From assembly GCA_951406725.2 (NCBI GenBank), contig OX597819.1, forward strand, positions 114,824,001 to 114,888,000: a stretch of DNA of 64,000 nt, in the 5' to 3' direction. The notes under the pieces are model-generated. The model did no database searches. It saw only the letters and a list, made by a program, of their open reading frames with translations, and was not told the DNA's origin. Shown piece by piece: positions 2,801 through 35,129 of this stretch; position 1 is the first letter of the stretch, and every line of letters starts with the position of its first letter. Position numbers and translations under genes: made by a program. The stretch comes from Octopus vulgaris. Its lineage: Eukaryota.

Positions 2801-2829
2801 ATATATATATTTATATATATTACTACTTA

Positions 2830-3375: not shown

Positions 3376-3559
3376 TATGTTCATCAGCTGGCAAAGAAAA
3401 AAGAAGTCACTGACAAAGCACTTTCAAGTGAAGACTATCATGTTTTATAGGGGTTCCTAGGACTTGTGTTCTGTATGTCCTTCTCATTTTATGGATAAAT
3501 CAATATTTATTATTCAAAATTCAACAAAGAAATATGAATAAAAGGGGATCGTTGATCAT

Positions 3560-5885: not shown

Positions 5886-6592
5886 GACACTACACCTTAA
5901 GCTCTCTGTTCCAATTTTTCATTGTAAAACATTTATGATGGTTAGTGTTCTATTGCAGATAGTGGGAGTGTGTTTCTTGTTCAATTGCAGTCCTGAGATC
6001 TTACTTCATGGGCAAAGCCCAACAATAGATTACCATCCTGGTATTTTAAAAATTTGTTAATTTAGATATCTTAAAAGAATTTGAGCAAGTGGATTGCTTG
6101 AAGGCACTTTTTTTCTAAGCTTAAATACTTAGGAACCGTCTGGATTATATAAAACAATTTTACTATTTACATCCTATATCAAGACATGAAAATCAAAATT
6201 ATACAACTAGAAATCGTGGAAAAATGTTTTCCTTACTAAATAAGGAAACAAAGGTTATATATATATCATCATCATCATCATCGTTTAGCGTCCGTTTTCC
6301 ATGCTAGCATGGGTTGGACGGTTCTACTGGGGTCTGTGAAGCCAGAAGGCTTCATCAGGCCCAGTCAAATCTGGCAGTGTTTCTACGGCTGGATGCCCTT
6401 CCTAATGCCAACCACTCCGTGAGTGTAGTGGGTGCTTTTTACGTGCCACCCGCACTGGTGCCAGACAGAGCTGGCAAACGGCCACGAACGGATGGTGCTT
6501 TTTATGTGCCACCGGCACGAGAGCCAGGCGAGGCTGGCAACGGACACGAAACGGGGCGGTGCTGGCAATGGTCGCGAAACGGAAAGTTCTCT

Positions 6593-6790
6593 TACATGCC
6601 ACCGGCACTGCTAACACATCTGCAATTTCCATTGATCGATTTCGATTCTGATCCTCACTTGCCTCAACGGGTCTTCACAAGCAGAGTTTTGACATGCCAC
6701 CGGCACTGGTAGCACATCCGCTATTTCCATTGATCGATTTCGATTCTGCTCCTCACTTGCCTCAACACGTCTTCACAAGTAGAGTTTTGT
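6593..6790. repeat. ~99 bp tandem duplication in the RTE 3' UTR, with repeated TGCCACC(C/G)GCAC motifs
   Basis: ACATGCCACCGGCACTG...TTTCCATTGATCGATTTCGATTCTG...CCTCACTTGCCTCAAC occurs twice. The short motif is also at ~6444 and ~6507. Confidence 0.85.
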
Positions 6791-6859
6791 GTCCCAAGAA
6801 GGGAAGGTATGCATACGTTGGCCGGCTCCATCCCATGTAGAAGGCCACGGGTTATGGAC

Positions 6860-9800
6860 TCACTTGTCCTGCCGGGTCTTCTCGTGCACAGCACACTTCC
6901 AGAGGTCTCGGTCTCTAGTCATTTCCTCAGTGAGACCTAAAGTTCGAAGGTCGTGCTTCACCACCTCGTCCCAGGTTTTCCTGGGTCTGCCTCTTCCACA
7001 GGTTCCCTCAACCGCTAGGGTGTGGCACTTTTTCACACAACTATCTTCATCCATTCTCGCCACATGACCATACCAGCGCAAACGTCTCTCTTGCACACCA
7101 CAACTGATGCTTCTTAGGTCCAGCTTTTCTCTCAATGTACTTACACTCTGCCGAGTGTGAGTACCGGCATTACACATCCATCGGAGCATACTGGCTTCAT
7201 TTCTAGCGAGCTTACGCATATCCTCAGCAGTCACGGCCCATGTTTCACTGCCATGTAGCATGGCTGTTCGTACACACGCATCATACAGTCTGCCTTTCAC
7301 TCTGTGCGAGAGGCCTTTTGTCACCAGCAGAGGTAAGAGCTCTCTGAACTTTGCCCAAGCTATTCTTACTCTAGCAGTTACACTTTCAGCACACCCGCCC
7401 CTGCTGCTGACTTGGTCACCTAGGTAACGGAAACTATCAACTATTTCTAGTTTTTCTCCCTGGAAAGTGACGGAAGTTGGTCTCAGAGCATTTTCAGTGT
7501 TTATTGTTCCTGAGCATCTGCCACATACAAAAACCATCTTCCTAGTTAGCCTTCCTTTGACATTGCTGCATCTCTTATGTGTCCATAGCTTACACTTGGT
7601 GCATCTTATAGAGTTTCTACCTACACCTTTTCTACAGATCGAGCAGGGCCATCTACCTGAAGGTGTTTGTGATTTGTCTACCTTCCTACTGATTACGACT
7701 TTGGTTTTAGCTAGATTGACTCTGAGGCCCTTCGATTCTAATCCTTGTTTCCACACCTGAAACTTCTCCTCCAGTTCTGATAGCGACTCAGCAATTAGAG
7801 CAAGGTCATCAGCATAGAGGAGCTCCCAAGGGCATCCTGTCTTGAATTCCTCCGTTATTGCCTGGAGGACTATGATAAATAGGAGGGGGCTGAGTACTGA
7901 GCCTTGGTGGACTCCTACCTCTACCCGGAATTCTTCACTGTACACATTTCCAACCCTCACCCTACTAGCGGCGTCCCTATACATGGCCCACACAGCTCTC
8001 ACTAACCATTCATCTATCCCTAGTTTCCTCATTGCCCACCAGATAAGGGATCGGGGGACCCTGTCGAAGGCTTTCTCCATGTCAACAAAAGCCAGGTACA
8101 GGGGCTTATCTTTGGCTAGGTATTTCTCCTGCAGCTGCCTTACCAGGAATATAGCATCAGTAGTACTTTTCCCTGGCACAAACCCAAACTGCATCTCATC
8201 TAAACTAACTCTCTCTCTAATTAGTTGGGCTATGACCCTCTCCGTAACCTTCATCACCTGGTCCAACAGCTTGATACCTCTGTAGTTATTTGTATCTAGG
8301 GCATCACCTTTACCTTTGTAGCAGTTGACTATTATACTGCTACACCAGTCATTGGGTATGACCCCTTTGTGTATCACCTGATTAACTATACGGGTGACTA
8401 GGCTATAGCCGACACTACCAGACATTTTGAGCATCTCTGCAGTGATTCCTGATGGGCCTGGGGCTTTCCCTGTCTTCATGCTTCTAATTGCCTTAGCTAC
8501 CACGGAACTATCAACTCGGATAGCTGGTCCCTCTGTTGGGTCAACATTCGGCAGACTCTCTTTATCCCATTCATTTTCTTCATTCAGCAACCTTTCATAG
8601 TGGCATCTCCAAACCTCTCTCTTTGCATCCTCATTTAGCGCAAGTGAACCATCTTCCATGCGAACACACTTCTCTCCTACCACATCACGATTCTCTCTCA
8701 CACACTGTCTTGCAACACGAAACACCTCCAGTCTTTGGTCCTCACGGCGCAGAACATTGGCAAATTTTTTCTTATCTGCTTCCCCTCTGGCTAAATAAAC
8801 CTGTCTCCTAGCTTCTCTTCTGGCAGTCTGATACAATCCCCTGCTACCCCCATTTTTCCAGACCTTCCAAGCCTGTCTCTTTTCTCTAATAGCCCTGTCT
8901 ACAATATTGTTCCACCACCACGTTATTCTAGGTCGAGAGGGGACTTTGCACCAGCCACAGATCTGGTCAGTGGCTCTCAGCAGGTTGTCCCTTAGAAACG
9001 TCCAGCTGTCTTCTACCCCCTGTGATGCTCTATCCCCTTCTACTTCGTCAGAGGCTTCAAGTAATATGTCCCTAAATCTCTGTCCATTTGCAGGATCTTT
9101 AAGCTTCCAGATCCTTCTTCTCCATATTTGTCGTCTTCTGGTTGTCCTCCTAGTCCTGATCCTAAAGTCACTAACTACCAGTCTATGTTGTGGGGTACAT
9201 TCTTCACCTGGGAAGGTTTTGGCATTTATAAGCAGCCATCTCTCCCTTTGCCTTGTAAGGATGTAGTCAATTTGGCTGGTATGTTGGCCCGATTGGTAAG
9301 TGACTAGGTGGCTGGTAGGTTTCCTGAAGTTAGTGTTGCAAATCATAAGATTATTTGCATCGCAGAACTCCAGCAGCCTGGTTCCCTCCTCGTTGCGGGA
9401 GCCATAGCCATAGCCTCCATGTACGCCATGGAAGCCCCCAGCATGTCGTCCAACGTGACCATTGAAGTCACCAGCCACAAAGATAAGGTCTCTGTCATTC
9501 GTCAACGAGGTAGTCTGCAGTAGAGTGTCATAGAATCGGTCTTTCTGTCCATCGGGTAGCCCCGACTGAGGAGCATAGGCTGATATAATGGTTGCTAAAC
9601 TATGATGAAGCACTAATCTAATCTTAAGTATTGTCACATACTCTGATTACCTCAATTACTTTATCTACCCATTTCTCAGCGATAAGTATACCCACGCCAC
9701 CAACCCCGTCAGTGTTCCCTGCCCAGAAAATCTTGTACCTGCGTTCCTTGCCTGTGAGGAACCTAGCTGATCCTCCTCTCCACCTTATTTCTTGCATGCA

Positions 9801-10025
9801 ACATATATCCACACATCTCCGTTCAAGCATCTCAACTATCTCACCAGACCTACCTTTCAGAGTGCCAACGTTGAGGGTGCCAACCCTGAGGGTGTGGGAG
9901 GCATGGGCTCTAGAGACCCTGGGACGGTGGACAGTAGCTTCGTGTACCTGAAAAGAAAGCTCGCATTTGGCAGAATTCATGTGCAAGAAATGAAGTAGTA
10001 AAGTAGCCTTCAGTACAACCTGCAT
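6860..10025 (-). CDS. RTE ORF: APE endonuclease plus reverse transcriptase with an inserted PHD-like Cys/His finger; one frameshift at ~9630
   Basis: TLNVGTL, CMQEIRW, SAYAPQ, AGDFNGHVG and QIDYIL (APE); FVDMEKAFDRV, GVHQGSVLSPLLF and LYADD (RT); RRLRWYGHV and GRGRPRKTW (RTE C-terminus). ORF 9624..10025 joins 6860..9637 across VIRVCD/ILKIRL. Confidence 0.95.
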
Positions 10026-12561
10026 AACGCTAGCCTTTCATATTTTGCACTGTATGAACATTACCTTACATAGGTCGAGACTAGGGGTAGGGAGGGGTAG
10101 GGATGGTGAGAGCATTTGCAGTCTTCATGGGAAGCAACCCCGGAATGGCAGAGAATAGGAACTTCCGGCATGCGTGTTGGGGGTGGGATGGCGGGTGCAC
10201 CGTAGCTGAGTAAAGAGGTTCTGTTAATCGTATGAGCTAGCAAATGGGTTTGTATGAATCGGGAGACAACACTAAACGAAAAATTGAAAAATCAGAGTGG
10301 CTATGAACCTGTAGACAAGTCTAAACGAAAAAAAATGTTTGAGCTAGACAGGGTAATGAGGGAATACTGAAAGAATGAGGGACAATACAATGAGATGGAA
10401 ATTGAAGAATAGAGAAAGAATAAGAATAAGTGCAAGAAAGAAGGTAGTCGTAGCGAGGTTGGACGATTCACTTAACTTTTAGCCATTCATGATCTGTGCG
10501 TATTCTTTAGATATTTTGAAGCGAGTGGGGTTAACGATAAATGCGATCGCTCTTTTATATATGGCGATGATGGTTTTGGGAAGGGGGGGCATAGAGAACC
10601 ATGGCGATGATGGTTATGGGAAGGGGGGACATAGAGAGAGAGAGAGATAGGGTTAGTTAGAGAGAGGTCAAGGGACACGTGACAATAAGCGGTGTGAGGG
10701 AATTTGACTGGGGACGGCATTGTCGATAAATAAACATTAGATAAATAGGTTTGAAAATCAGAGGGAATATCATTATTGATAGCTAATATAACACCGTAGC
10801 TGAGTAAAGAGGTTCTGTTAATCGTATGAGCTAGCAAATGGGTTTGTATGAATCGGGAGACAACACTAAACGAAAAATTGAAAAATCAGAGTGGCTATGA
10901 ACCTGTAGACAAGTCTAAACGAAAAAAAATGTTTGAGCTAGACAGGGTAATGAGGGAATACTGAAAGAATGAGGGACAATACAATGAGATGGAAATTGAA
11001 GAATAGAGAAAGAATAAGAATAAGTGCAAGAAAGAAGGTAGTCGTAGCGAGGTTGGACGATTCACTTAACTTTTAGCCATTCATGATCTGTGCGTATTCT
11101 TTAGATATTTTGAAGCGAGTGGGGTTAACGATAAATGCGATCGCTCTTTTATATATGGCGATGATGGTTTTGGGAAGGGGGGGGCATAGAGAACCATGGC
11201 GATGATGGTTATGGGAAGGGGGGACATAGAGAGAGAGAGAGATAGGGTTAGTTAGAGAGAGGTCAAGGGACACGTGACAATAAGCGGTGTGAGGGAATTT
11301 GACTGGGGACGGCATTGTCGATAAATAAACATTAGATAAATAGGTTTGAAAATCAGAGGGAATATCATTATTGATAGCTAATATAACACCGTAGCTGAGT
11401 AAAGAGGTTCTGTTAATCGTATGAGCTAGCAAATGGGTTTGTATGAATCGGGAGACAACACTAAACGAAAAATTGAAAAATCAGAGTGGCTATGAACCTG
11501 TAGACAAGTCTAAACGAAAAAAAATGTTTGAGCTAGACAGGGTAATGAGGGAATACTGAAAGAATGAGGGACAATACAATGAGATGGAAATTGAAGAATA
11601 GAGAAAGAATAAGAATAAGTGCAAGAAAGAAGGTAGTCGTAGCGAGGTTGGACGATTCACTTAACTTTTAGCCATTCATGATCTGTGCGTATTCTTTAGA
11701 TATTTTGAAGCGAGTGGGGTTAACGATAAATGCGATCGCTCTTTTATATATGGCGATGATGGTTTTGGGAAGGGGGGGCATAGAGAACCATGGCGATGAT
11801 GGTTATGGGAAGGGGGGACATAGAGAGAGAGAGATAGGGTTAGTTAGAGAGAGGTCAAGGGACACGTGACAATAAGCGGTGTGAGGGAATTTGACTGGGG
11901 ACGGCATTGTCGATAAATAAACATTAGATAAATAGGTTTGAAAATCAGAGGGAATATCATTATTGATAGCTAATATAACACCGTAGCTGAGTAAAGAGGT
12001 TCTGTTAATCGTATGAGCTAGCAAATGGGTTTGTATGAATCGGGAGACAACACTAAACGAAAAATTGAAAAATCAGAGTGGCTATGAACCTGTAGACAAG
12101 TCTAAACGAAAAAAAAATGTTTGAGCTAGACAGGGTAATGAGGGAATACTGAAAGAATGAGGGACAATACAATGAGATGGAAATTGAAGAATAGAGAAAG
12201 AATAAGAATAAGTGCAAGAAAGAAGGTAGTCGTAGCGAGGTTGGATGATTCACTTAACTTTTAGCCATTCATGATCTGTGCGTATTCTTTAGATATTTTG
12301 AAGCGAGTGGGTATTTCTTTATTATGATTATAAAAATCGATTACACAGAAGGACAAATACAGGACATACATACAAAAAAAACATTTAAGAGATTCGATTA
12401 AAAATTTTCATTTACATTGGGATTATTCATTATAACATAAATGTCCTTTACATGACCAGTAGAACAAACAACAGTACATGAACTTATAATCTCACTGGAG
12501 TTTTTACACCCCGGCAATTTATGAGGCCCTGCAGCTTTTATTTCCTCTCCTTCCTCCATGG

Positions 12562-15500
12562 TCAAGCTGGGTTTCTGACACCCACCTTTTTTTCCACTTC
12601 CTTCCATCTTTTCTCATACACACCCCGCAGTAAGATCCTCTTTTCCAGCCCCATTTTGCTCTTCAGATGATATCTGAAGTAAGTGAGCAAGCCGGGGCCG
12701 GAGACAAAGGATCCTATCGCGGCTCCTTCCATTCTTGTTCTCCACATACATTCTTTTACTACTGCAACCGTGCAGTGAAAACATGCCTCACCTTCCTTCG
12801 AGAGTCCAGTTGGCGGTATCATCTTAATCATAGACTCAGCCGACAGCTGTACTCGTCCCAGATGCGATAACACGTGTTCTGCGTAACTTATCAAGTCGGA
12901 CAACTTCCGACAGTGAACAAAAGCGTGCTGGACGGTTTCATCGTCCAACTCGCACCTTGGACACGTCGGTGGCACTGAAACTCCGTGCCGCGATAACTTC
13001 TCGCGAACAGGTAAAGCATTCCTATAGCACTGCCAGGCCAGGGATCTTTGGAAATTATCCAAATACCCCGACCTGAAAGTTTTTTTAAACAGGTTGGTAA
13101 GCTGGTCTTCGTCAAACCCCAGAGCCCCTCCTAGGACGTCGTCGTTTTTTACCTCTACCAGCTTTCTATAAAATACCGAGGTGGTATTTCCGCAGCCGGC
13201 CTTGCCCGCCTTGTGGATCAGCGTGAGTGCCTGTCGGCACTCCTTTTGCCATGGAGTCAGTTTCCATCTTTTGATGTAACCGGGTTTAAAATTCACTAAG
13301 GAGGCCGGTCTCGGGAAAAATCCCCCTGCCAGCGGACTCCACACCTTATCACCCTCCAGGTGGTGCCAGAGATGCCTTAGCCTCAACGCATGTCTGCGCA
13401 TCATCAACCAAGGCATTCCTAACCCACCCTTTAACGGTTCCTGGCAGCAAACGGAGCGCCTCACAAGTGGCCTTCCTCCCTTCCACAAAAAGTGGAAAAG
13501 GATTCGCTCCAACTTGTTAAGCCATGAATCGGGGCAAGGGACAACGGTCAGGCGGTAGGTGATTACAGATGCAATGAACATCTGCACCACCTCCGCCTTT
13601 CCTTTCAAGGACAGAAACCTTCCGGACCAGGTCCGTACTATGGCTTCCACCTTGCTCGTCACCTCACTCCAGTTCTTCTCCGTTTGGGAGTCTGGCCCAA
13701 ACCAAACTCCCAGCAACTTAACAGGGCCATCCGTCCAGTGTCCCACGACACTGGACGATATCGACTTGCTCCTCCAGGTGCCGAGGCGCAAGCCGACCGA
13801 TTTGTCCTTGTTAACCTTTGCTCCTGCCACCGCCTCGTATCCTCTGATAGCCTCCTCTACACAAGGTAGTTGGGCCTCTTTGGACACGATGAGGGTGACG
13901 TCATCCGCATAAGCAGTAACCGTCCTCCCACCTCCGATTTCATCCGAGTTACTCCCCAGCCTCTCCAACTTTCGCAGCAATGGCTCAAGAGCCAATACGT
14001 ACAAAAGTGGTGACAAGGGGCACCCCTGACGCACTGAACACTCGATCGAAAACGGTTCCGTTAGGTAACCGTTTATCTGGACGGTGGACTTGATGCCGCT
14101 ATACATAGCGGAGATCCACCCGCGAAATTCAGGGCCCAGCCCAGCCGCTTCGAGGACCGTCGCCAGGTACCCATGGTCTACCCTATCGAAGGCTTTACTT
14201 TGGTCTAAATGGACCATTACCCCGCCTTTGCCGGCTAATTTACCCACCCTATCTAAGGTGTAGCGTATAAGGTGAAGGTTGTCCTGGATCGACCTGCCTG
14301 GAATTGCACATGTCTGTGCTCTCCCTACAAGTTTCTCCACGACAACCGTCAACCTTTTTGCCAACACCTTGGCCAAAATCTTTAACTCTACATTAAGTAG
14401 AGTTATGGGCCTGTAGTTACTGATGTTATCCCCCTTGCTCGGGTCTTTCTGGATTAGCGTCACCACTCCCCGGCTTACAGAACTGGGAATTCTCCCATTC
14501 TGCTGCCAGTTCGTGTAGACGCCCGCCAGTATTCCCCCGAACAAGTCCGGCATACTTTGGTAAAACTCGTAGGGCAGACCATCCAACCCCGGCGACTTCT
14601 CCCCGGCGCATCCGGCCAGTATCTCCTTTATCTCCGCGGGAGTGATCGCTCCTTCACAGCACTCCACCTCACGCCCCGCGAGCCGCGGCCCGCCGGCTAG
14701 GAAGTCCTTTAAGGCTCTCCCCCGATCCAGCGGACCACCACCCCCGAACACGCGGGCGGAATGCTGGTGAAGAAACTTTTGCATCTCCTCCTGTCCATAG
14801 ATCTTTTGTCCCTGTTCGTCAGTTAAAGATTTGATTGAGGCTCTGTTGCCTCTCTGACTCTCCACACGACGGGCCCATCCGGCCACGTTAATACCTTCTC
14901 GTTTCCCAGCGCATAGCTTAGCTCTGACTCTGCAACCTTCGTGTTTGGAGTTAAGGTGACGGTACAATACCGTCCTTGCCGCCAACACTCCGGATGCAGA
15001 GCCAGCTTCCATTGCCTCGTCTAGATTCTTAACTAAATCGCCCTCTAGACTAGCCCTATCTATCCTTAGCTGATTGCTAAATCTAACGGACTCTGAACGA
15101 ATGGCTCTTTTGAGGGCGTGCCACCATCTATTGTTAATGATGGTGCCACACAATGCCCTCTGAACTAACACCTTAATCCGGGCACGGAAGTCTTCACAAT
15201 TCAAAATAGCCTTGTTCAGCTTCCAGTACCCGGGTCCCTGTCTATGACACTTGTCTAATTGCATCCTACACGTCACAAATTTGTGATCCGAGTAGGGTAC
15301 AATATGAAATTGTGGACAACTAAACGTATCCTTATCTCTTTTCTTGATAAATATCCTATCTAGATACGATCTGTGTGAGCCGTCGTTGTTACTCCACGTC
15401 CACTGTGGAACGCTCGGCTCATCCAGTCGGTAACGGTCCACTAGATCAAAGCTCTCTAGTAGACCCTTGAGGCTAGGATTCCCCTTCCTATTGGTTGAGC

Positions 15501-15951
15501 CAACACTGTCGATCTGCGCTTCAAGGACAGTGTTAAAGTCCCCTACTAGGATTACTGTTTTCGACGTCGCTAAAAAGGGCTCCAGGTTCCGAAAAAAACC
15601 CCTCTGTCTACCCTCGTTCGGGGCGTAGACAGCTACCAACCTGAAGGACTGTTTACTTACGTGAGTCACATCCAGGACAACCAGCCTGCCTTCTGGGTCC
15701 AGAAAGACAGTACTTACCTGCAAGTCCAAGCTCTTCCTGATGAAGACTGCCACGCCTCTGCCTCTTCCTCGGCTAGGAGAAATAAATTTCTCGAAACCAT
15801 TTAGAAGAGGCGAGAACGCTTGGGTCTCGCTCATCTTGGACTCGGTTGCAATGGCTATATCTACACCATGTGTCGTGAGGTCGTTCAGGAAACAAATTTG
15901 TTTCCGTTTCGACCCCATTCCACGTACATTTATACAACCCAGCTTAGCCAT
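12562..15951 (-). CDS. Tx1 ORF2 (APE endonuclease, RT, C-terminal CCHC), intact, 1129 aa
   Basis: CINVRG, VYAPN, VGDFN, YLDRIF, YSDH, GPGYWKLN, KSPGLDG, DQSKAFDRVDH, VRQGCPLSPLLY, AYADD, CPRCELDDETVQHAFVHC. Confidence 0.97.
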   Translation of the reverse strand: MAKLGCINVRGMGSKRKQICFLNDLTTHGVDIAIATESKMSETQAFSPLLNGFEKFISPSRGRGRGVAVFIRKSLDLQVSTVFLDPEGRLVVLDVTHVSKQSFRLVAVYAPNEGRQRGFFRNLEPFLATSKTVILVGDFNTVLEAQIDSVGSTNRKGNPSLKGLLESFDLVDRYRLDEPSVPQWTWSNNDGSHRSYLDRIFIKKRDKDTFSCPQFHIVPYSDHKFVTCRMQLDKCHRQGPGYWKLNKAILNCEDFRARIKVLVQRALCGTIINNRWWHALKRAIRSESVRFSNQLRIDRASLEGDLVKNLDEAMEAGSASGVLAARTVLYRHLNSKHEGCRVRAKLCAGKREGINVAGWARRVESQRGNRASIKSLTDEQGQKIYGQEEMQKFLHQHSARVFGGGGPLDRGRALKDFLAGGPRLAGREVECCEGAITPAEIKEILAGCAGEKSPGLDGLPYEFYQSMPDLFGGILAGVYTNWQQNGRIPSSVSRGVVTLIQKDPSKGDNISNYRPITLLNVELKILAKVLAKRLTVVVEKLVGRAQTCAIPGRSIQDNLHLIRYTLDRVGKLAGKGGVMVHLDQSKAFDRVDHGYLATVLEAAGLGPEFRGWISAMYSGIKSTVQINGYLTEPFSIECSVRQGCPLSPLLYVLALEPLLRKLERLGSNSDEIGGGRTVTAYADDVTLIVSKEAQLPCVEEAIRGYEAVAGAKVNKDKSVGLRLGTWRSKSISSSVVGHWTDGPVKLLGVWFGPDSQTEKNWSEVTSKVEAIVRTWSGRFLSLKGKAEVVQMFIASVITYRLTVVPCPDSWLNKLERILFHFLWKGGRPLVRRSVCCQEPLKGGLGMPWLMMRRHALRLRHLWHHLEGDKVWSPLAGGFFPRPASLVNFKPGYIKRWKLTPWQKECRQALTLIHKAGKAGCGNTTSVFYRKLVEVKNDDVLGGALGFDEDQLTNLFKKTFRSGYLDNFQRSLAWQCYRNALPVREKLSRHGVSVPPTCPRCELDDETVQHAFVHCRKLSDLISYAEHVLSHLGRVQLSAESMIKMIPPTGLSKEGEACFHCTVAVVKECMWRTRMEGAAIGSFVSGPGLLTYFRYHLKSKMGLEKRILLRGVYEKRWKEVEKKVGVRNPA

Positions 15952-15979
15952 TGTGGGTTAGAGAGAAAATTAAATGTAC

Positions 15980-17402
15980 TCACGGTTGGGAAAGGGAGCA
16001 TGACAGTTTAAATCTGCCTGCTTCCCCTTCTTCCGCTGCTGCAGGGCTCTTGACCGGCGTTGCCACCGGGCTCTGGGTGGGTGTGGTTGCCGGGGTTATT
16101 ATCAGTTTGCCCTCCATTACCTCTTTGGTCACGTCTCTTATCAGTCGGTTCCTCAGGTGTTCCTGAAGAACCTCCTCCTTCCACTCGTCCTCCCCTACCT
16201 TCGCGAAGCGAGCGGTTGCTTTCACATCTGTGGCTCTACTATACAATACAAATCTTGAGAATTTACAACACTTGTACACTCTTTCGTTTTTCTCGTCGAA
16301 AGCTATGATCCTCTCGTTCTTCTGTAGGCACTTTTTTATGTCTTGTTTTATGGGGAGGGGCTTGGCAAACTGTTTTCCAATGAAAACAGTGCCATGGGGG
16401 TAGGGTTGGGGGATTTGCTTGATGTGTGTGTCTGCTGTGTTTGCTGTTTTTTTCTTTGTTTGGGGAGGGGAGTCCTGGGTATTATCTTTTTTTCTTTTAT
16501 GAGTGACTTGTGTGTAGTCCATTGGTTCTGTATGGTCCGTTTTTGTTTTTGTACTTGTCTTCGTCTTTTTGTTGTCTTTTCCTGTTTTCTCCCCTTCAGT
16601 GTTGGGGACACTTGGAGGAGGCGCTTCTTCTGTTCTCTTCTTTTTTATACAATTTGATCTGACGTGACCCTTCTCTCCACACTTGAAACATCTGGGTCTA
16701 CGTCCCTCCACTGCAACTCTCATTGACGTCCCGTCCTCATTGAAGATTCTATCGGGCAGGCCCTCTAAAATTTTGTTCTCCGCCTGCCACGAGGAGTTCC
16801 AGGGTCTGACCCTTCCACCGCACCACCTCTTTCCTTCTCATCTGCAGTATCGATATCTCTCGTTCAATATTGTGCAGGACCGCCGCTGCTACCCACATGA
16901 TGTCGTACCCTCTGGGTATGTCCTCTACCAGCAACTTCGCTGTACGCTTCCCCATGTACGAGGGTAGCAGCATGATGTCGTTTTTTAGGGTCAACGACGA
17001 CACCTCTCTCGCTACCTCGGCTGTGTCGAAATGTGCCTCGACTGTAGCACTGCGTGCACCTCTAACGACATGACGAATTTTGTCCCACACCGGGGACAGG
17101 CACTTTTCTACCATTTCATTCTTTACATCCATTATCTTCTTTTCTTTAAAGCTGTATACCTTGTAAATAACTATTCTTTCTTTAATCTCTTGTACCTTTG
17201 CCTGCGGCGGTACAAGCCTTATCTCGCCTCCTTCCACTTTTACCAGGTTCCTGAATTCGTACAATTGTTCGATTTTAAACTCGACATCCATCATGGCGCC
17301 GCCCACCGCGGCCGAAAATGACTGTTTGGGTACTTCTTTTTCCTTATTTTCACTTTTTCCCATCACGGGAAAATCCTCCTTCGACGTCAAGTCGAAATCC
17401 AT
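15980..17402 (-). pseudogene. Tx1 ORF1 of copy 1 (single CCHC knuckle), frameshifted at ~16787
   Basis: Split into ORFs 16749..17555 and 15980..16723. There is an extra C (GCCTGCCACG versus GCCTGCACG in copy 2). Contains CFKCGEKGHVRSNC. Confidence 0.9.
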
Positions 17403-17838
17403 TACCTCGAAGGTAATAAAAATACAGTTAATACAAAATTTTCTGCCCCGTAGGGCGAAAATTACCGTTATACAACGGGCACTGTTCAAACAATCAGCAC
17501 AGACAATAATAGCACAAATCCGAACTCTCTTAAATGAAGGCAGCAAATTTCTCACAACGCAGATGAAAGTAACTCGAGAACAAAATTTTTGAAGCGAGTG
17601 GGGTATTTCTTTATTATGATTATATAATCACACATAGAAGGACAAATACAGGACATACATACACAAAAAACATTTAAGAGATTCGTTTTAAAAATTTTCG
17701 TTTACATTTGAATTAAAAAATGAAAATAAATGTCTTTTATATGGCCTAGTAGAACAAACCACAATACATAACTGGAGCTTCTGCACCCCGGCAATTTATG
17801 AGGCCCTGCAGCTTCCACTTCCTCTCTCTCCTCCATGG

Positions 17839-20800
17839 TCAAGCTGGGTTTCTGACACCCACCTTTCTTTCCACTTCCTTCCATCTTTTCTCATACACAC
17901 GCCGTGGTAAGGTCCTCTTTTCCAGCCCCATTTTGCTCTTCAGATGATATCTGAAGTAAGTGGGCAGGCTGGGGCCGGAGACAAAGGATCCTATCGCGAC
18001 TCCTTCCATTCTCGTTCTCCACATGCATTCCTTTACTACTGCAACCGTGCAGTGAAAACATGCCTCACCTTCCTTCGAGAGTCCAGTTGGCGGTATCATC
18101 TTAATCATAGACTCAGCCGACAGCTGTACTCGTCCCAGATGCGATAACACGTGTTCTGCGTAACTTATCAAGTCGGACAACTTCCGACAGTGAACAAAAG
18201 CGTGCTGGACGGTTTCATCGTCCAACCCGCACCTTGGACACGTCGGTGGCACTGAAACTCCGTGCCGCGATAACTTCTCGCGAACAGGTAAAGCATTCCT
18301 ATAGCACTGCCAGGCCAGGGATCTTTGGAAATTATCCAAATACCCCGACCTGAAAGTTTTTTTAAACAGGTTGGCAAGCTGGTCTTCATCAAACCCCAGA
18401 GCCCCTCCTAGGACGTCGTCGTTTTTTGCCTCTACCAGCCCTCTATAAAATACCGAGGTGGTATTTCCGCAGCCGGCCTTGCCTGCCTTGTGGATCAGCG
18501 TGAGTGCCTGTCGGCACTCCTTTTGCCATGGAGTCAGTTTCCATCTTTTGATGTAACCGGGTTTAAAATTCACTAAGGAGGCCGGTCTCGGGAAAAATCC
18601 CCCTGCCAGCGGACTCCACACCTTATCACCCTCCAGGTGGTGCCAGAGATGCCTTAGCCTCAACGCATGTCTGCGCATCATCAACCAAGGCATCCCTAAC
18701 CCACCCTTTAACGGTTCTTGGCAGCAAACGGAGCGCCTCACAAGTGGCTTTCCTCCTTTCCACAAAAAGCGGAAAAGGATTCGCTCCAACTTGTTAAGCC
18801 ATGAATCGGGGCAAGGGACAACGGTCAGGCGGTAGGTGATTACAGATGCAATGAACATCTGCACCACCTCCGCCTTCCCTTTCAAGGACAGAGACCTTCC
18901 GGACCAGGTCCGTACTATGGCCTCCACCTTGCTTGTCACCTCACTCCAGTTCTTCTCCGTTTGGGAGTCTGGTCCAAACCAAACTCCCAGCAACTTAACA
19001 GGGCCATCCGTCCAGTGTCGTGGGACACTGGACGATATCGACTTGCTCCTCCAGGTGCCGAGGCGCAAGCCAACCGATTTGTCCTTGTTAACCTTTGCTC
19101 CTGCCACCGCCTCGTATCCTCTGATAGCCTCCTCTACACAAGGTAGTTGGGCCTCTTTGGACACGATGAGGGTGACGTCATCCGCATAAGCAGTAACCGT
19201 CCTCCCACCTCCGATTTCATCCGAGTTACTCCCCAGCCTCTCCAACTTTCGCAGCAGTGGCTCAAGAGCCAATACGTACAAAAGTGGTGACAAGGGGCAC
19301 CCCTGACGCACTGAACACTCGATCGAAAACGGTTCCGTTAGGTAACCGTTTATCTGGACGGTGGACTTGATGCCGCTATACATAGCGGAGATCCACCCGC
19401 GAAATTCAGGGCCCAGCCCAGCCGCTTCGAGGACCGTCGCCAGGTACCCATGGTCTACCCTATCGAAGGCTTTACTTTGGTCTAAATGGACCATTACCCC
19501 GCCTTTGCCGGCTAATTTACCCACCCTATCTAAGGTGTAGCGTATAAGGTGAAGATTGTCCTGGATCGACCTGCCTGGAATTGCACATGTCTGTGCTCTC
19601 CCTACAAGTTTCTCCACGACAACCGTCAACCTTTTTGCTAACACCTTGGCCAAAATCTTTAACTCTACATTAAGTAGAGTTATGGGCCTGTAGTTACTAA
19701 TATTATCCCCCTTGCTCGGGTCTTTCTGGATTAGCGTCACCACTCCCCGGCTTACAGAACTGGGAATTCTCCCGTTCTGCTGCCAGTTCGTGTAGACGCC
19801 TGCCAGTATTCCCCCGAACAAGTCCGGCATACTTTGGTAAAACTCGTAGGGCAGACCATCCAACCCCGGCGACTTCTCCCCGGCGCATCCGGCCAGTATC
19901 TCCTTTATCTCCGCGGGAGTGATCGCTCCTTCACAGCACTCCACCTCACGCCCCGCGAGCCGCGGTCCGCCGGCTAGGAAGTCCTTTAAGGCCCTCCCCC
20001 GATCCAGCGAACCACCACCCCCGAACACGCGAGCGAAATGCTGGTGAAGAAACTTTTGCATCTCCTCCTGTCCATAGATCTTTTGTCCCTGTTCGTCAGT
20101 CAAAGATTTGATTGAGGCTCTGTTGCCTCTCTGACTCTCCACACGACGGGCCCATCCGGCCACGTTAATACCTTCTCGTTTCCCAGCGCGCAGCTTAGCT
20201 CTGACTCTGCAACCTTCGTATTTGAAGTTAAGGTGACGGTACAATACCGTCCTTGCCGCCAACACTCCGGATGCAGAGCCAGCTTCCATTGCCTCGTCTA
20301 GATTCTTAACTAAATCGCCCTCTAGACTAGCCCTATCTATCCTTAGCTGATTGCTAAATCTAACGGACTCTAAACGAATGGCTCTTTTGAGGGCGTGCCA
20401 CCATCTATTGTTAATGATGGTGCCACACAATGCCCTCTGAACTAACACCTTAATCCGGGTACGGAAGTCTTCACAATTCAAAATAGCCTTGTTCAGCTTC
20501 CAGTACCCGGGTCCCTGTCTATGACACTTGTCTAATTGCACCTCACACGTCACAAATTTGTGATCCGAGTAAGGTACAATATGAAATTGTGGACAACTAA
20601 ACGTATCCTTATCTCTTTTCTTAATAAATATCCTATCTAGATACGATCTGTGTGAGCCGTCGTTGTTACTCCACGTCCACTGTGGAACGCTCGGCTCATC
20701 CAGTCGGTAACGGTCCACTAGATCAAAGCTCTCTAGTAGACCCTTGAGGCTAGGGTTCCCCTTCCTATTGGTTGAGCCAACATTGTCGATGTGCGCTTCA

Positions 20801-21227
20801 AGGACAGTGTTAAAGTCCCCTACTAGGATTACTGTTTTCGACGTCGCTAAAAAGGGCTCCAGGTTCCGAAAAAACCCCTCTGTCTACCCTCGTTCGGGGC
20901 GTAGACAGCTACCAACCTGAAGGACTGTTTACTTACGTGAGTCACATCCAGGACAACCAGCCTGCCTTCTGGGTCCAGAAAGACAGTACTTACCTGCAAG
21001 TCCAAGCTCTTCCTGATGAAGACTGCCACGCCTCTGCCTCCTCCTCGGCTAGGAGAAATAAATTTCTCGAAACCATTTAGAAGAGGCGAGAACGCTTTGG
21101 TCTCGCTCATCTTGGACTCGGTTGCAATAGCAATATCTACACCGTGTGTTGTGAGGTCGTTCAGGAAACAAATTTGTTTCCGTTTCGACCCCATTCCACG
21201 TACATTTATACAACCCAGCTTAGCCAT
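17839..21227 (-). pseudogene. Tx1 ORF2 of copy 2, frameshifted in an A-run at ~20870
   Basis: ORFs 20847..21227 and 17839..20718 match copy 1 ORF2. The run is A6 versus A7 in copy 1, which could be an assembly homopolymer error. Confidence 0.9.
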
Positions 21228-21254
21228 TGTGGGTGAGAGAGAAACAAAAAGTAC

Positions 21255-22679
21255 TCACGGTTGTGAAAGGGAGCATGACAGTTTAAGTCTGCCTGCTTCC
21301 CCTTCTTCCGCTGCTGCAGGGCTCTTGACCGGCGTTGCCACTGGGCTCTGGGTGGGTGTGGTTGCCGGGGTTATTATCAGTTTGCCCTCCATTACCTCCT
21401 TGGTCACATCTCTTATTAGACGGTTCCTTAGATGTTCCTGAAGAACCTCCTCCTTCCACTCGTTCTCCCCTACCTTCGCGAAGCGAGCGGTTGCTTTCCC
21501 ATCTGAGGTTCTACTATACAATATAAATCTCGAAAGTTTGCAACACTTGTATACTTTCTCATTTTTCTCATCGAAAGCTATTATCCTTTCGTTCTTCTGT
21601 AGGCACTTTTTTATGTCTTGTTTTATGGGGAGGGGCTTGGCAAACTGTTTTCCAATGAAAACAGTGCCATGGGGGTAGGGTTGGGGGATTTGCTTGATGT
21701 GTGTGTCTGCTGTGTTTGTTGTTTTTTTTCTTGTTTGGGGAGGGGAGTCCTGGGTATTCTCTTTTTTTCTTTTATGAGTGACTTGTGTGTAGTCCATTAG
21801 TTCTGTATGGTCTGTTTTTGTTTCCGTACTTGTCTTTGTCTTTTTGTTGTTTTTACTTGTTTCCTCCCCTTCAGTGATAGGGACACTTTGAGGAGGCGCT
21901 TCTTCCGTTTTTTTCTTTTTAATACAATTGGATCGGACGTGACCCTTCTCTCCACACTTGAAGCATCTGGGTCTGCGTCCCTCTACCGAAACTCTCATGG
22001 ACGTACCGTCCTCATTGAAGATTCTATCTGGCAGGTTTTCAAGGATTTTGTTCTCCGCCTGCACGAGGAGTTCTAGGGTCTGGCCCTTCCACCGTACCAC
22101 CTCTTTCCTTCTCATTTGCAGTATTGATATTTCACGTTCCATGTTGTGCAGGACTGCCGCTGCTACCCACATGATGTCGTACCCTCTGGGTATGTCTTCT
22201 ACCAGTAACTTCGCAGTTCGCTTCCCCATATACGAGGGTAGCAGCATGATGTCGTCGTTTTTTAGGGTCAACGACGACACCTCTTTCGCCACCTCTGCCG
22301 TGTCAAAGTGCGCCTCGACCGTAGCACTGCGTGCACCTCTAACGACATGACGAATTTTGTCCCACACCGGGGACAGGCACTTCTCGACAATTTCATTTTT
22401 CACATCCATTATCTTTTTTTCTTTAAAGCTGTATACTTTATAGATCACGATTCTTTCTTTAATCTCTTGTACTTTTGCCTGTGGCGGTACAAGCCTTATT
22501 TCGCCTCCTTCCACTTTAACTAGGTTCCTGAATTCGTATAGCTGTTCGATTTTAAATTCGACATCCAACATGGCGCCGCCCACCGCGGCCGAGAATGACT
22601 GTTTGGGTACTTCCTTTTCCATATTTTCACTTTTTCCCATCACGGGAAAATCCTTCTTTGACGTCAAGTCGAAATCCAT
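21255..22679 (-). CDS. Tx1 ORF1 of copy 2, intact (~474 aa from MDFDLTS), with a CCHC zinc knuckle
   Basis: Open frame 21255..22835 with the first ATG at 22679. Contains RPRCFKCGEKGHVRSNC and a basic low-complexity linker. Confidence 0.9.
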   Translation of the reverse strand: MDFDLTSKKDFPVMGKSENMEKEVPKQSFSAAVGGAMLDVEFKIEQLYEFRNLVKVEGGEIRLVPPQAKVQEIKERIVIYKVYSFKEKKIMDVKNEIVEKCLSPVWDKIRHVVRGARSATVEAHFDTAEVAKEVSSLTLKNDDIMLLPSYMGKRTAKLLVEDIPRGYDIMWVAAAVLHNMEREISILQMRRKEVVRWKGQTLELLVQAENKILENLPDRIFNEDGTSMRVSVEGRRPRCFKCGEKGHVRSNCIKKKKTEEAPPQSVPITEGEETSKNNKKTKTSTETKTDHTELMDYTQVTHKRKKENTQDSPPQTRKKTTNTADTHIKQIPQPYPHGTVFIGKQFAKPLPIKQDIKKCLQKNERIIAFDEKNEKVYKCCKLSRFILYSRTSDGKATARFAKVGENEWKEEVLQEHLRNRLIRDVTKEVMEGKLIITPATTPTQSPVATPVKSPAAAEEGEAGRLKLSCSLSQP

Positions 22680-22864
22680 TACCTTGAAGGTAATAAAAAC
22701 GCAGGTAATACAAAATTTTCTGCCCCGTAGGGCGAAAATTACCGTTATACAACGGGCACTGTTCAAAACAGTTAGCACAAACACTAGTAGCACAAATCCG
22801 AACTCTCTTAAATGAAGGCAGCAAATTTCGCACAACGCAGATGAAAGTAACTCGAGAACAAAAT

Positions 22865-23032
22865 TTTTGAAGCGAGTGGGGTTAACGATAAATGCGATCG
22901 CTCTTTTATATATGGCGATGATGGTTTTGGGAAGGGGGGGGCATAGAGAACCATGGCGATGATGGTTATGGGAAGGGGGACATAGAGAGAGAGAGAGATA
23001 GGGTTAGTTAGAGAGAGGTCAAGGGACACGTG
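22865..23032 (-). promoter_or_regulatory. Putative Pol II core promoter in each monomer (E-box, CT/GA tract, TATA box, initiator-like CCACTC)
   Basis: Minus strand: GTCACGTG (CACGTG at 23027-23032), (CT)n, TATATAAAAG (22903-22912; also 10552-10561 etc.), then CCCCACTCG ~30 nt downstream. Motif-based only. Confidence 0.55.
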
Positions 23033-26000
23033 ACAATAAGCGGTGTGAGGGAATTTGACTGGGGACGGCATTGTCGATAAATAAACATTAGATAAATAGG
23101 TTTGAAAATCAGAAAATCAGAGGGAATATCATTATTGATAGCTAATATAACACCGTAGCTGAGTAAAGAGGTTCTGTTAATCGTATGAGCTAGCAAATGG
23201 GTTTGTATGAATCGGGAGACAACACTAAACGAAAAATTGAAAAATCAGAGTGGCTATGAACCTGTAGACAAGTCTAAACGAAAAAAAATGTTTGAGCTAG
23301 ACAGGGTAATGAGGGAATACTGAAAGAATGAGGGACAATACAATGAGATAATATATATATTTATATATATTACTGTTTATTGTTTGTGCCTTCTCTTGTA
23401 GCTCTCCCCATAATTCATTTGTTGCACTGAGTCAATTTTCTTTGGGAAGTGGTGTTCCACTGTTAGACACCTTATGGCAAACAAAGAGAACAGAAATCTA
23501 GATGACTGAGAATAAATATTCTCCATAGGAATAGCATGATATCCTTTTTCCTTGTTTTGAATGATCTTGGAATCCAACCAGCCACTGGCCTACAGTGGTT
23601 CCATCATGGTAATATGTAGATGGAGTGTTCTGAGTTCAAATGCGACCAAGGTTGACTTTGCCTTTCATCCTTATGGTGTCGATAAAGTAAGTACCAGTTG
23701 AGTACGGAGGTTGTTGTAATCAACTAACTCCTTCTCTCGAAATTGCTATCCATGTGTCAAAATCTGCAACCAATATGTAGATGGCATGTTGCATCATTAC
23801 TCATGTGGATCCCCAGGTCATGCACCCACTATATCTCTAAAATTGCACTACTCCTCAGCCCAGTGTATTTTGACTGCACTTTGTTGGCTTATAACAGTGC
23901 TTGAAGTTGCTCAGCATTGAACTGCATGTTATGTTCATCAGCTGGCAAAGAAAAGAAGTCACTGACAAAGCACTTTCAAGCGAAGACTATCATGTTTTAT
24001 AGGGGTTCCTAGGACTTTTGTTCAACATGTCCTTCTCTTTTTATGTATAAATCAATATATATTATTCAAAATTCAACAAAGAAATATGAATAAAAGGAGA
24101 TTGTTAATCGTTGGCAGACTCAGTTTCAGGTTTTCCACTCATTTCCATCCATCTTCAGCTGCTTGATATATTTCACTGAGTGACATCCCACAGTCTGTAT
24201 GAATGGTATGGTGGTATGTTGTTCTTGTTTCCTCATGCTCTCAACCTTGTAGGGTCTTAAGCAGTAGGTACTGTTGACAGTATTTATTGGGTGGGTGTTG
24301 CAGTTGGTGACCTGTTCATCTCAACTGGTGTTCCTTTCTCTTTGTGCTCATTTGCTTTTTGTCAGTCATTTGGTACAATGTATTCTTGGATATGTGGCCG
24401 TTATAGGATATCTGATATATTATCCTCAGGTTTCTTGTGTGAAAAGTGTTCACCATGACCCTTTACTGATTTGTATTTGTTACCCATGTCTTACTTCTGT
24501 ATGTAAAAATTACAATTACCAGTTTTTCAATTTTCTAATGTGTTATTCTTAGAATTAAGTTAAATTATGTGAAACCTTTGCAACCTTGATGTCTAGAAAT
24601 TACATTTGTATTTAAGAGCTGTTAATTCCTCCCTTATGCTTCAATATTGAAAGTAGTTTTGAGAAATGGAATGAGTTTCTAGCAATTTCTCATGGAAGAA
24701 AAAAACAAACAACACTTGGCTTGTGAGATTATCTCTGTGCTTGTGTCAAAGCCAATGTTATTTACAGCCATTCTCGAAACTATATCTGCTAGATTGTTCT
24801 ACAATAGATGTTGTTCATTGTTTACATCCATTTTTCTATGCTTATATCAGGTGGAGAAATCTTTTCCAGCTCAGCATCATGCCATTTGTTGCAGTTCCAT
24901 CCTCATTTATTTTGTGTTGCACATTGAGAATAGTTTTCTCTACTTCTTCCCAAATCTTTCTTTTCTGCTTATTCCCATTCCATTAATAGCTTTATACTTG
25001 TTTACCCACTGTCTTTCATCATATCCATTGGATGTTTATACCACTTTAGGCTCCTCCTTTGCACACCATGGTTGATACCTCTTATACACAGTGGCTCTCT
25101 CATATAACCTGTTTTCGTTGGGTACACAGTATAATATTCCAACCTACATCTTTTTTGCATATTGAGCATGGGCATTTCTTAAGTGGCAGTTCTACCTATT
25201 TCTTTTCCTGACAAGAGTTTTACTAAGTTTACTTTAATCCTTCTTGATTCTTGGTTTTGACTTCTGTATTTTGAATTTCTTTTCCAATTCTTAGACTGAT
25301 TCAGGTGGGAAATAAGTCAAAATTAAGATCTCAAAGTTAATGAGCCAGCCAACTTTCGGTTAAGGGAATACATAGATACCTCATCCATCCAATCAAAATT
25401 CTCTTCAAACCATTTTGTCTACGATTCTTAACTGGTATTATTAATGATGGAAAATTGCAATTTCATATACACTCACATTTCTTCCATATGTTTCTTAGCA
25501 AGGGATTTGAGTGAGGCTGTGTAGAAATTACATTTGTATTTAAGAGCTGTTAATTCCTCCATTATGCTGCAATATTCAAAGTGGTTTTGAGAAATGGAAT
25601 GAGTTTCTAGCAATTAATCAAACCATTATCACTATTTGATATCCCTAAAAGCTCATTTCAAAATCTTTAGTGCATTAACTGTTAGTTAATGGTGAATCAA
25701 ATACAGAACATTGACACTACACCTTAAGCTCTCTGTTCCAATTTTTCATTGTAAAACATTTATGATGGTTAGTGTTCTATTGCAGATAGTGGGAGTGTGT
25801 TTTTTGTTCAATTGCAGTCCTGAGATCTTACTTCATGGGCAAAACCCCACAATAGATTGCCATCCTGGTATTTTAAAAATTTGTTAATTTAGATATATTA
25901 AAAAAATTTGAGAAAGTGGATTGCTTGAAGGCACGTTTTTTCTAAGCTAAATACTTAGGAACTGTCTGGATTATGTAAAAATATTTTACTATTTACATCC

Positions 26001-29000
26001 GATATCAAGACATGAAAATCAAAATTATACAACTAGAAATCATGGAAAAATTTTTTCGTTACTAAATAAGGAACAAAAGTTATATATATATATATATATA
26101 TATTTATTAATACAAATAAATGAAAGAATGGAGTTGAACGACGATTTAACAAAATTCCTTTATTCTTGACATAGGTTTCGAAGGCTGCATATTCCTAATT
26201 TCGAAGGAATAAGGGGTTCATTATGCCGCCTTCGCATCAGGAAAAACAAGGAACGTATGTCAGCATCAAGATGAACAAAAACTTTTAGATGGCTGCCCAC
26301 ACGGAGCCCATAGCGATAATGAGTGTTTCTTTAAAATATTCCGTTATAAGCAGACGTCAAAAATGGTTGAATGTAGAAGATTCTAGAAAGTTCAAGGGTT
26401 CAAACAAGGTTGGAGGAGAGAGGTCTAAGAATATAAATATATATATTTATATATATTACTACTTATTGTTTGTTCCTTCTCTTGTAGCTCTCCCCATAAC
26501 TCATTTGTTGCACTGAGTAAATTTTCTTTGGCAAGTGGTGTTCCACTGTTAGACACTTTATGGCAAACAAAGAGAACAGCAATCTAGATGACTGAGAATA
26601 AATATTCTCCATAGGAATAGCATGATATCCTTTTTCCTTGTTTTGAATGATCTTGGAATCCATCCAGCCACTGGCCTACAGTGGTTCTATCTTGGTAATA
26701 TGTAGATGAAATGTTCTGAGTTCAAATGCCACCAACGTTGACTTTGCCTTTTATCCTTATGGTGTCGATGAAATAACAGTTGAGTACTGGGGTTGATGTA
26801 ATCAACTTACCCCTTCCCTCGAAATTGCTGGCCTTGTGCCAAAAACTGCAAACGATATGTAGATGGCATGTTGCATCATTATTCATGTGGATCCCCAGGT
26901 CATGCACCCACTATATCTCTAAAATTGCATTACTCCTCGGCCCAGTGTATTCTGACTGCACTCTGCTGGCTTATAACAGTGCTTGAAGTTGCTCAACGTT
27001 GAACTGCATGTTATGTTCATCAGCTGGCAAAGAAAAAAAGAAGTCACTGACAAAGCACTTTCAAGTGAAGACTATCATGTTTTATAGGGGTTCCTAGGAC
27101 TTGTGTTCTGTATGTCCTTCTCATCTTATGGATAAATCAATATTTATTATTCAAAATTCAACAAAGAAATATGAATAAAAGGGGATCGTTGATCATTGGC
27201 GGACTCAGTTTAAGGTTTTCCACTCCATCCATCTTCAGCTGCTAGATATATTTCACTGAGTGACATCCCACTGTCTGTATGAATGGTATGGTGGTATGTC
27301 GTTCTTGTTTCCTCATGCTCCCCACCTTAAGCTGTAGGTACTGTTGATAGCATTCATTGGGTGAGTGTTGCAGTTGGTTACCTGTTCATCTTAACTGGTG
27401 TTCCTTTATCCTTGTGCTCATTTGCTTTTTGTCAGTCATTTGGTACAATGTATCCTTGGAAATGTGGTCATTATAGGATATCTGATATACTATCCTCAGG
27501 TTTCTTGTGTGAAAAGTGTTCACCATGGCCCTTTACTGATTTGTATTTGTTACCCATGTCTTTATGTAAAAATTACAATTACCAGTTTTTCAATTTTCTA
27601 ATGTGTTATTCTTAGAATTAAGTTAAATTATGTGAAACCTTTGCAACCTTGATGTCTAGAAATTACATTTGTATTTAAGAGCTGTTAATTCCTCCATTAT
27701 GCTTCAATATTCAAAGTGAGTTTGAGAAATGGAATGAGTTTCTAGCAATTTCTCAAGGAAGAAAAAAAAAAATCATCACTCAGCTTGTGAGATTTTCTCT
27801 GTGCTTGTGTCAAAGCCAATGTTATTTACAGCCATTCTCGAAACTATATCTGCTAGATTGTTCTACAATAGATGTTGTTCATTGTTTACATCCATTTTTC
27901 TATGCTTATATCAGGTGGACAAATCTTTTCCAGCTCAGCATCATGCCATTTGTTGCAGTTCCATCCTCATTTATTTTATGTTGCACATTGAGAATAGTTT
28001 TCTCTACTTCTTCCCAAATCTTTCTTTTCTGCTTATTCCCATTCCATTAATAGCTTCATACTTGTTTACCCACTGTCTTTCATCATATGCATTGGATGTT
28101 TATACCACTTTAGGCTCCTCCTTTGCACACCAAGGTTGATACCTCTTATACACAGTGGCTCTCTCATATAACCTGTTTTCGTTGGGTACACCGTATAAAA
28201 TTCCAACCTACATCATTTTTTGCATATTGAGCATGGGCATTTCTTAAATGGCAGTTCTACTTTTTTTTTTCCTGACAAGAGTTTTACTAAGTTTACCTTA
28301 TTCCCTTTTGAATCTTGGTTTTTGACATCTATGTTTTGAATTTCTTTTCCAATTCTTAGACTGATTCAGCTGGGGACTAGGTCAAAATTAAGAGATCTCA
28401 AAGGTAGTGAGCCAGCCAATTTTTGTTTAAGGGAATACATAGATACCTCATCCATCCAATCAAAATTCTCTTCAAACCATTTTGTCTACGATTCTTAACT
28501 GGTATTATTAATGATGGAAAGTTGCAATTTCATATACAATCACATTCGTTCCATATGTTTCTTAGCAAGGGATTTGAGTGAGGCTGTGGAGAAATTACAT
28601 TTGTATTTAAAAGCTGTTAATTCCTCCCTTATGCTTTAATATTCAAAGTGGTTTTGAGAAATGGAATGAGTTTCTAGCAATTAATCAAACGATTATCACT
28701 ATTTGATATCCCTAAAAGCTCATTTCAAAATCTTTAGTGCATTAACTGTTAGATAATGTTGAAACAAATAACGGTCGTCCTTCGGGTTCGAAGATGACCA
28801 TTGACATCATTTGGTGGAATTGCTGCTATGAGACCGGAGGTGGCTGGTGAGGCCAATCCGGGCAAGAAAGCCCTCCCGCAGGTGGGTCAGAAGTGGGTAG
28901 GGGCTGTGCTATTGGTGCAGGTGGCTCTGGCTTTCTGCATCTGGCGTTTCTGTTCTGCTGACTGAATCTTTCTCTCCTCGGCTGTCTTTGCAGATGTGGT

Positions 29001-35000: not shown

Positions 35001-35081
35001 CTATATCAAGACATGACAATCAAAATTATACAACTAGAGATCGTGGAAAAAAATTTTTCCTTACTAAATAAGGAACAAAAG

Positions 35082-35129
<48 letters not shown>

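Follow-up and report, generated by a model that had tools for sequence, protein, structure and literature searches.

We analysed a 64-kb window of the Octopus vulgaris genome (G000:C6:114824001-114888000), by which we mean the whole stretch of DNA under study, and searched the 2.8-Gb assembly of 227 contigs to which it belongs. The minus strand of the window carries a single composite, running from 23349 to 6267, in which a partial RTE monomer is followed by a TSD, the element Tx1-B, a second TSD, the element Tx1-A, a third TSD, three further monomers with a partial unit, and an RTE-like LINE. Its features, in the order in which that strand reads, are:

23350..23360, minus strand: (TA)n tract of a 3.1-kb tandem repeat, the insertion site of the RTE composite; its partner lies just below 6267
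22865..23349, minus strand: RTE monomer, 5'-truncated, 486 bp, the predicted promoter source
23027..23034, minus strand: putative E-box-like GTCACGTG, in every monomer, as read in the sequence
About 22984..22998, minus strand: CT tract of the monomer, as read in the sequence
22903..22912, minus strand: TATA box of the RTE monomer, TATATAAAAG, upstream of Tx1-B, with the TSD spacing of other target promoters
22877..22881, minus strand: predicted +1 region (from TATA spacing), the first five TSD bases, with an initiator-like A at 22877
22865..22881, minus strand: 5' TSD, CCCCACTCGCTTCAAAA, 17 nt, as read in the sequence
17604..22864, minus strand: Tx1-B, full length
22679-21255, minus strand: ORF1 of Tx1-B, open, with CCHC knuckle
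17610..17615, minus strand: AATAAA of Tx1-B, 6 nt before the element end, without a poly(A) tail
17587..17603, minus strand: middle TSD, 17 nt
12312..17586, minus strand: Tx1-A, full length, ORF2 open (1131 aa)
12318..12323, minus strand: AATAAA of Tx1-A, 6 nt before the 3' end
12296..12311, minus strand: 3' TSD, 16 nt
10198..12311, minus strand: three 594-bp RTE monomers and a 333-bp partial unit, with TATA boxes at 11741, 11146 and 10552
6267..10197, minus strand: body of the RTE-like LINE (APE, RT, PHD-like finger), ending in a (GAT)n tail
9646-6860, minus strand: 928-aa open stretch of the RTE-like LINE

The composite interrupts one unit of a 3.1-kb tandem repeat array (1220-6266 and 23350-41444) that shows internal sub-repeats and holds one 220-bp high-copy repeat per unit, and comparison of the filled unit with an empty one at 29520-29610 shows the flanks joined. 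ORF2 of Tx1-B (APE, RT, zf-RVT) has a frameshift near 20850-20900, and ORF1 of Tx1-A has one near 16790-16880. The two Tx1 copies are 95% identical and belong to different clades of a tree of 63 3' segments; they are thus separate insertions. The host element, RTE-like in its build, encodes APE and RT (PF14529 and PF00078) in a single ORF and has a short tandem-repeat tail, (GAT)n. A PHD-finger-like stretch right after the RT in its ORF (6860-9646, minus strand) matches PF00628 at E 5e-4, below the cut-off, and by eye its endonuclease seems to start upstream, in another frame. Elsewhere in the window lie older Tx1-like ORF1/ORF2 fragments, 32-54% identical to the studied family (45190-45823 and 53779-54999, both minus strand), a GIY-YIG (Penelope-like) fragment (106-864, minus strand), another RT fragment (50772-51734, minus strand) and a 2.4-kb tandem duplication of 96% identity (57535-62400).

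The sequence-only reading had set a TATA box, a TSD, an E-box and a CT tract around the 5' end of Tx1-B, and had proposed that Tx1 places itself just behind the +1 of the monomer promoter and borrows it. All four were found where it put them, on the minus strand. Tx1-B begins at 22864, directly after the TSD and in the same orientation as the monomer TATA box, again as claimed; in this 5' flank the TSD starts 31 nt past the first T of the TATA box, or 29 nt past TATAAAAG. The predicted +1 falls within the TSD, and the Tx1 body begins 13-17 nt past it. A single TATA coincidence is weak evidence, since 4.4% of the 5-nt windows here contain the start of a TATAWAWR match with no more than one mismatch.

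The monomer is the 5'UTR of the RTE: 20 monomer loci were fetched, all 17 that could be read beyond the last unit enter an RTE body, and the remaining three stretches span only the 5' end of long arrays. Measured from the TSD start, five RTE copies flanked by (TA)n begin at about nt 5, 6, 10, 12 and 23 of the unit, with one copy in the 30 nt upstream; these 5' ends are weakly suggestive of a +1 in the first TSD bases. An Rfam scan of the monomer gave no match and hence no sign of a small RNA gene. Contigs from four runs presumed to be RNA, viewed over 17400-24200, lie over Tx1 and the monomer with almost none over 23756-24200, and such contigs, which show neither start nor strand, were given no weight. 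The same reading held that the AATAAA of Tx1 would end read-through into the RTE. The RTE of the window would not be silenced in this way, as it keeps three intact monomer promoters on the 3' side of the Tx1 pair. Some monomer arrays, with units of about 600 bp and a TATA box in each, are far longer than promoter upkeep requires: they count 31, 24 and 17 units (G000:C1:150109573-150127683, C3:9587633-9601801 and C2:91332837-91342620, respectively). At one RTE 5' end (G000:C5:45093300-45097500) a 26-nt piece from the predicted +1 is followed by a (TA)n tract and then by the monomer from position 116, perhaps through a template jump.

The Tx1-like element encodes a separate ORF1 of 474 aa with a gag-like CCHC knuckle (PF00098) and an ORF2 with APE endonuclease, RT and C-terminal zinc finger (PF03372, PF00078 and PF13966). 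Against solved structures, ORF2 is nearer to human L1 ORF2p (E 3e-65) than to R2 (E 1e-24), and it is 25% identical to the window RTE and to another RT of the window. An Atlas search for the clade returned clusters of CCHC proteins only (0.89-0.92). By its sequence the element is a member of the L1 superfamily with Tx1-like build, a label that describes the build, the closest homologues being unnamed.

Copies were collected across the genome with a 20-nt 3'-end pattern (84 matches, 57 clusters) and a 5'-core pattern (75 matches), and both ends were fetched. A TSD, mostly of 15-19 nt, adjoins the 5' end in 44 of the 57 clusters; among the 13 others, which had no automatic TSD, two were recovered by hand, three are chance 20-mer matches without an upstream Tx1, and truncation or rearrangement accounts for the remainder. 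The TATA count omits cluster 6, which is a local duplication, and cluster 20, which is internal to an array and was replaced by L131; L133, L134 and L138 (no TSD) and L140 (a copy of L139) were left out of it. These copies occupy unrelated targets. Besides the monomer there are at least two further types of RTE promoter, a site borne by a Helitron, a multicopy promoter that occurs in clusters (type I) and numerous single sites. Sequence-specific Tx1 families have one multicopy target, whereas at least 21 unrelated targets were found here. The monomer-promoter idea holds in outline and is too narrow, the monomer being one of these targets, with four Tx1-bearing loci against 188 genome matches of its TATA motif.

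We scored TATAWAWR with at most one mismatch at -28 to -32 from the TSD start, using a general consensus not fitted to this species. A TATA-like box was present in 11 of 21 collapsed unrelated targets, eight of them at exactly -30; elsewhere in these flanks 127 of 2835 windows scored (4.5%; P 3.4e-10). The insertion at a predicted start, about 30 nt past a TATA box, is thus seen at unrelated targets too and far beyond chance. Without collapsing, 17 of 27 targets have the box at -28 to -32. A conservative set omits a TA microsatellite site and one member of a possibly related pair and takes the Helitron as TATA-less; in it 8 of 19 targets have the box (P 1.1e-6). Counted by locus, the figure is 29 of 50. 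The sense orientation of the earlier reading is supported as well: Tx1 is sense in all four monomer loci, and a mirror test on the opposite strand found TATA in one of the 21 targets. Among nine related RTE-promoter loci the TATA-to-TSD distance is 30 nt in eight and 28 nt in one, whereas a shared CACTCGCT motif lies 31, 32 or 37 nt past the TATA box and is separated from the TSD start by 1, 2, 3 or 7 nt. Two unrelated TATA targets (L079 and L086) hold copies whose final 1.25 kb are identical. A fixed distance to a core promoter is found at those 11 targets; the other 10 of 21 do not fit and lack a TATA-like box at -30, and by eye some are not promoters, L137 and L132 lying in coding-like DNA and sharing 6-8 nt with the parent TSD. 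There was no rise in CpG or GC around the insertion sites. At L086, L106 and L079, where LTR bounds were sought, only chance-like TG...CA pairs appeared, and L106 has a weak match to an integrase zinc domain, below the Pfam cut-off.

Two of the target families are informative about repeated use. The type I target is present in 40 or more copies, which form clusters on C27 and C2; some 310 nt past the TSD it has a donor-like GTAAGT. The first locus read has a C2H2 zinc-finger ORF 4.2 kb downstream on the same strand and the second a similar ORF on the matching strand; the zinc-finger ORF would be spliced to the type I exon. In type I pairs that align, Tx1 copies differ by about 1% and flanks by 6-13%, which indicates that host gene promoters were hit repeatedly. 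The clusters of C2H2 zinc-finger genes (G000:C27:22.8-26.3 Mb and C2:14.64-14.74 Mb) have a common promoter and first exon, and more than 10 of the genes carry Tx1 at the predicted start.

The other target family is a non-autonomous Helitron-like element (L061, L087, L100 and others; 94 matches) with, by eye, a TC start, a hairpin and a CTAG end. Within it lies the 5' end of an older Tx1 family, and one Tx1 lineage has made it a hot target; one of its subfamilies lacks 46 bp, the TATA box included. TATA-deleted copies are filled more often than TATA-bearing ones (10 of 44 versus 2 of 50; Fisher P 0.011), so that TATA is not required, and either homing by RNA pairing or a TATA-less start from the older Tx1 5'UTR must also act. 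Tx1 copies at the Helitron-borne sites differ by 0.3-0.6% and the flanks by 3.3%, and with so much less divergence than the flanks they look like separate insertions. For the TATA-deleted group, this difference led us to reject hitchhiking of all Helitron copies with one Tx1, and gene conversion among the Helitron-borne Tx1 copies may have contributed to it.

Tx1 5' ends also record earlier sites. At several loci, foreign TSD tags stand between the element's own TSD and its core: an 18-nt type B tag at L133, a 16-nt type C tag at L014 (itself a type B site), a type F tag at L137, nested F and C tags at L084 and L131, and a doubled tag at L045. These foreign tags begin at position -1 to +3 of the parent TSD and none has promoter DNA from further upstream. 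Over 17 loci the core begins anywhere between 23 and 67 nt from the TSD start, and inside one lineage between 39 and 67 nt. The tags fit RNA made from a host +1 inside the TSD, with tags gained or lost at each round, and Tx1 transcripts probably begin in the TSD; the earlier prediction that they start with TSD-derived bases gains genomic support in this way. A fixed internal start does not fit the variable distance, and a split initiator/DPE promoter, with its fixed spacing between +1 and a motif of the element, was rejected on the same 17 loci.

At the other end of the element, an A run is absent from all 57 of the 3' junctions. Which bases come first past the 3' end depends on the lineage: one has TCT in 18 of 18 clusters, another is C-rich there, and a further one is mostly purine-rich at the second and third base. 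At several loci the 5' and 3' TSD copies differ at internal or first positions, as is expected if RNA supplies some of the bases. Three copies of one lineage have 6-8 nt in common with the parent TSD at otherwise unrelated sites. From this we infer a pairing between the nicked template strand and RNA that continues beyond AATAAA into the 3' TSD.

Taken as a whole, the observations are best explained, and we think probably explained, by a Tx1-like LINE that targets RNA polymerase II start sites by position rather than by one sequence, borrows the promoter it finds there and primes by read-through. The template strand would be nicked first, at +1 or up to a few bases ahead of it, and the second nick would follow 15-19 nt further downstream, a spacing that would let the TSD span the initiator. 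The host promoter would then transcribe the TSD tag and the whole element; the RNA would extend slightly beyond AATAAA, and the few 3' TSD bases gained in this way would pair with the nicked target and prime reverse transcription. Such priming would give each lineage a short sequence memory and would steer it to the same target family again. The start site may be recognised by contact with TBP, TFIID or Pol II, or by its melted bubble. Each insertion would rebuild TATA and TSD upstream, so that the site could be reused and tandem arrays could grow. The earlier claim that the TSD regenerates the target is in keeping with tandem arrays of up to 10 copies and with the different clades of the two window copies. 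Older Tx1 5' ends lie directly behind a new insertion at several loci, and at G000:C9:59204000-59253400 ten head-to-tail Tx1 copies, the last cut short, stand behind one TACATAAA box. In that array the first TSD base is G at the upstream junctions and T at the last two, which may record the direction of growth.

Could Tx1 carry a promoter of its own near its 5' end and land at start sites only for their being open or melted, with no borrowing? Most LINEs have internal promoters (PMC1636488, available part), initiator-like words can be picked out by eye in the first 25 nt of Tx1, and the hot TATA-deleted Helitron copies carry the older Tx1 5'UTR right behind the site. The stacking of the 5' tags, their beginning at the TSD start of the parent site and the variable TSD-to-core distance, also within one lineage, tell against it, and we regard it as unlikely. 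Homing by sequence, in which read-through RNA pairs with look-alike DNA and promoters are in excess since only transcribed copies breed, accounts for the lineage-specific first bases, the reuse of the same target families, the off-target sites with 6-8 nt of the parent TSD and the Helitron result. Three common bases, however, cannot bring the share of targets with TATA at -30 to about 50% when the background is 4.5%; TATA+30 is also where truncated dead-end copies are found (L106, L065 and L122), and among RTE promoter variants the site tracks TATA and not the common motif. Homing as the only principle is thus quite improbable.

A classical Tx1, with an endonuclease specific for the RTE monomer sequence and an incidental TATA spacing, would account for the same site in four monomer loci and would resemble families aimed at one transposon or repeat, which are on record in the available part of PMC4494074. 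Contradicting it are the 21 or more unrelated targets, which have nothing in common beyond the first bases, and near-identical copies in unrelated targets; we give it very little credence. Start-site targeting with a borrowed promoter is the explanation with which we compare known systems below.

SLACS inserts just after the +1 of a Pol II gene, in the spliced-leader genes, and R2, SLACS and CRE have a restriction-like endonuclease. Each of the three differs from the Tx1-like element in having one multicopy target (28S rDNA or spliced-leader genes). R2 is like it in depending on the transcription of its target, 28S rDNA (PMC4494074, in the part available). HeT-A of Drosophila telomeres is alike in that transcription starts in the upstream neighbour, a 5' piece is added and head-to-tail arrays form, but its promoter is its own 3' end and its target the chromosome end (both from the available part of PMC1636488). 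As to targeting, the accessible sections of PMC5911963 describe the LTR retrotransposons Ty3 (S. cerevisiae) and Tj1 (S. japonicus) as inserting within a few bases of a start, by position and not by sequence; Ty3 does so 1-4 nt from Pol III starts via TFIIIB and needs TBP and Brf1. These elements use integrase, Pol III genes and their own LTR promoter, whereas the Tx1-like element is an APE LINE found at TATA-type Pol II starts in one orientation. The same sections present TRE5-A and NLTR-A of dictyostelids (L1 clade) as L1-type LINEs at a set distance from a promoter, with TRE5-A ORF1 binding TFIIIB subunits including TBP; they differ in lying upstream of tRNA genes (Pol III) and are not described there as transcribed from the target promoter. 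By analogy, the Tx1-like element would work with Ty3- or TRE5-A-like targeting and R2- or HeT-A-like transcription.

Its closest likeness in build (ORF1 with CCHC; ORF2 with APE and RT) is to Tx1L, Keno, Kibi, Koshi, Tx1-Mar and Tx1-8_Crp, which also insert into other transposons (PMC4494074, available part). Each known Tx1 family has a single repeat, gene or transposon as its target (PMC4494074 and PMC6719617, in the parts available), and the named ones are each tied to theirs by endonuclease specificity (available part of PMC4494074), whereas the studied family has unrelated targets at a fixed TATA distance. The accessible portion of the Octopus vulgaris repeat annotation lists 13 recently active L1-Tx1 families, and the words 'target' and 'promoter' are absent from that portion (PMC13282606). 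In the literature covered, mostly open-access papers, we found no LINE aimed at Pol II starts across unrelated promoters; targets of such families may already be on record in Repbase reports or supplements. Known target-specific LINEs follow one DNA sequence or, in amoebae, settle beside Pol III genes; targeting of Pol II starts at base resolution would, if true, be a new rule and would account for the survival of a promoter-less LINE outside rDNA. It would also place a terminator-bearing 5-kb insert between promoter and first exon in zinc-finger genes and competing transposons. The stacked 5' tags would be a record of a lineage's past targets, from which the history of target switching could be read in DNA.

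A 1.7-kb non-autonomous Tx1-like family, which has ORF1 only (30-44% identical), ends like the studied family. TATA lies at -29 or -30 in four of its seven flank sites with TSD, against a background of 40 of 476 (8.4%; P 0.0014); the count rests on these seven out of 29 loci, 21 being without a 3' end or without a TSD and one being tandem. For the two families together we tentatively suggest, as a reading that may well prove too far-reaching, that this APE LINE lineage is a base-precise parasite of Pol II start sites, shared by at least two divergent families. Its proteins would dock on TBP/TFIID or the Pol II complex and nick the template at +1; itself promoter-less, it would be transcribed by any promoter it hits, among them those of rival transposons and clustered zinc-finger genes, and would cut their transcripts short. 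Were this so, it would be the Pol II, LINE counterpart of Ty3, and its insertions would map germline start sites. The 1.7-kb family (L171-L199) often stands in tandem with itself or with relatives.
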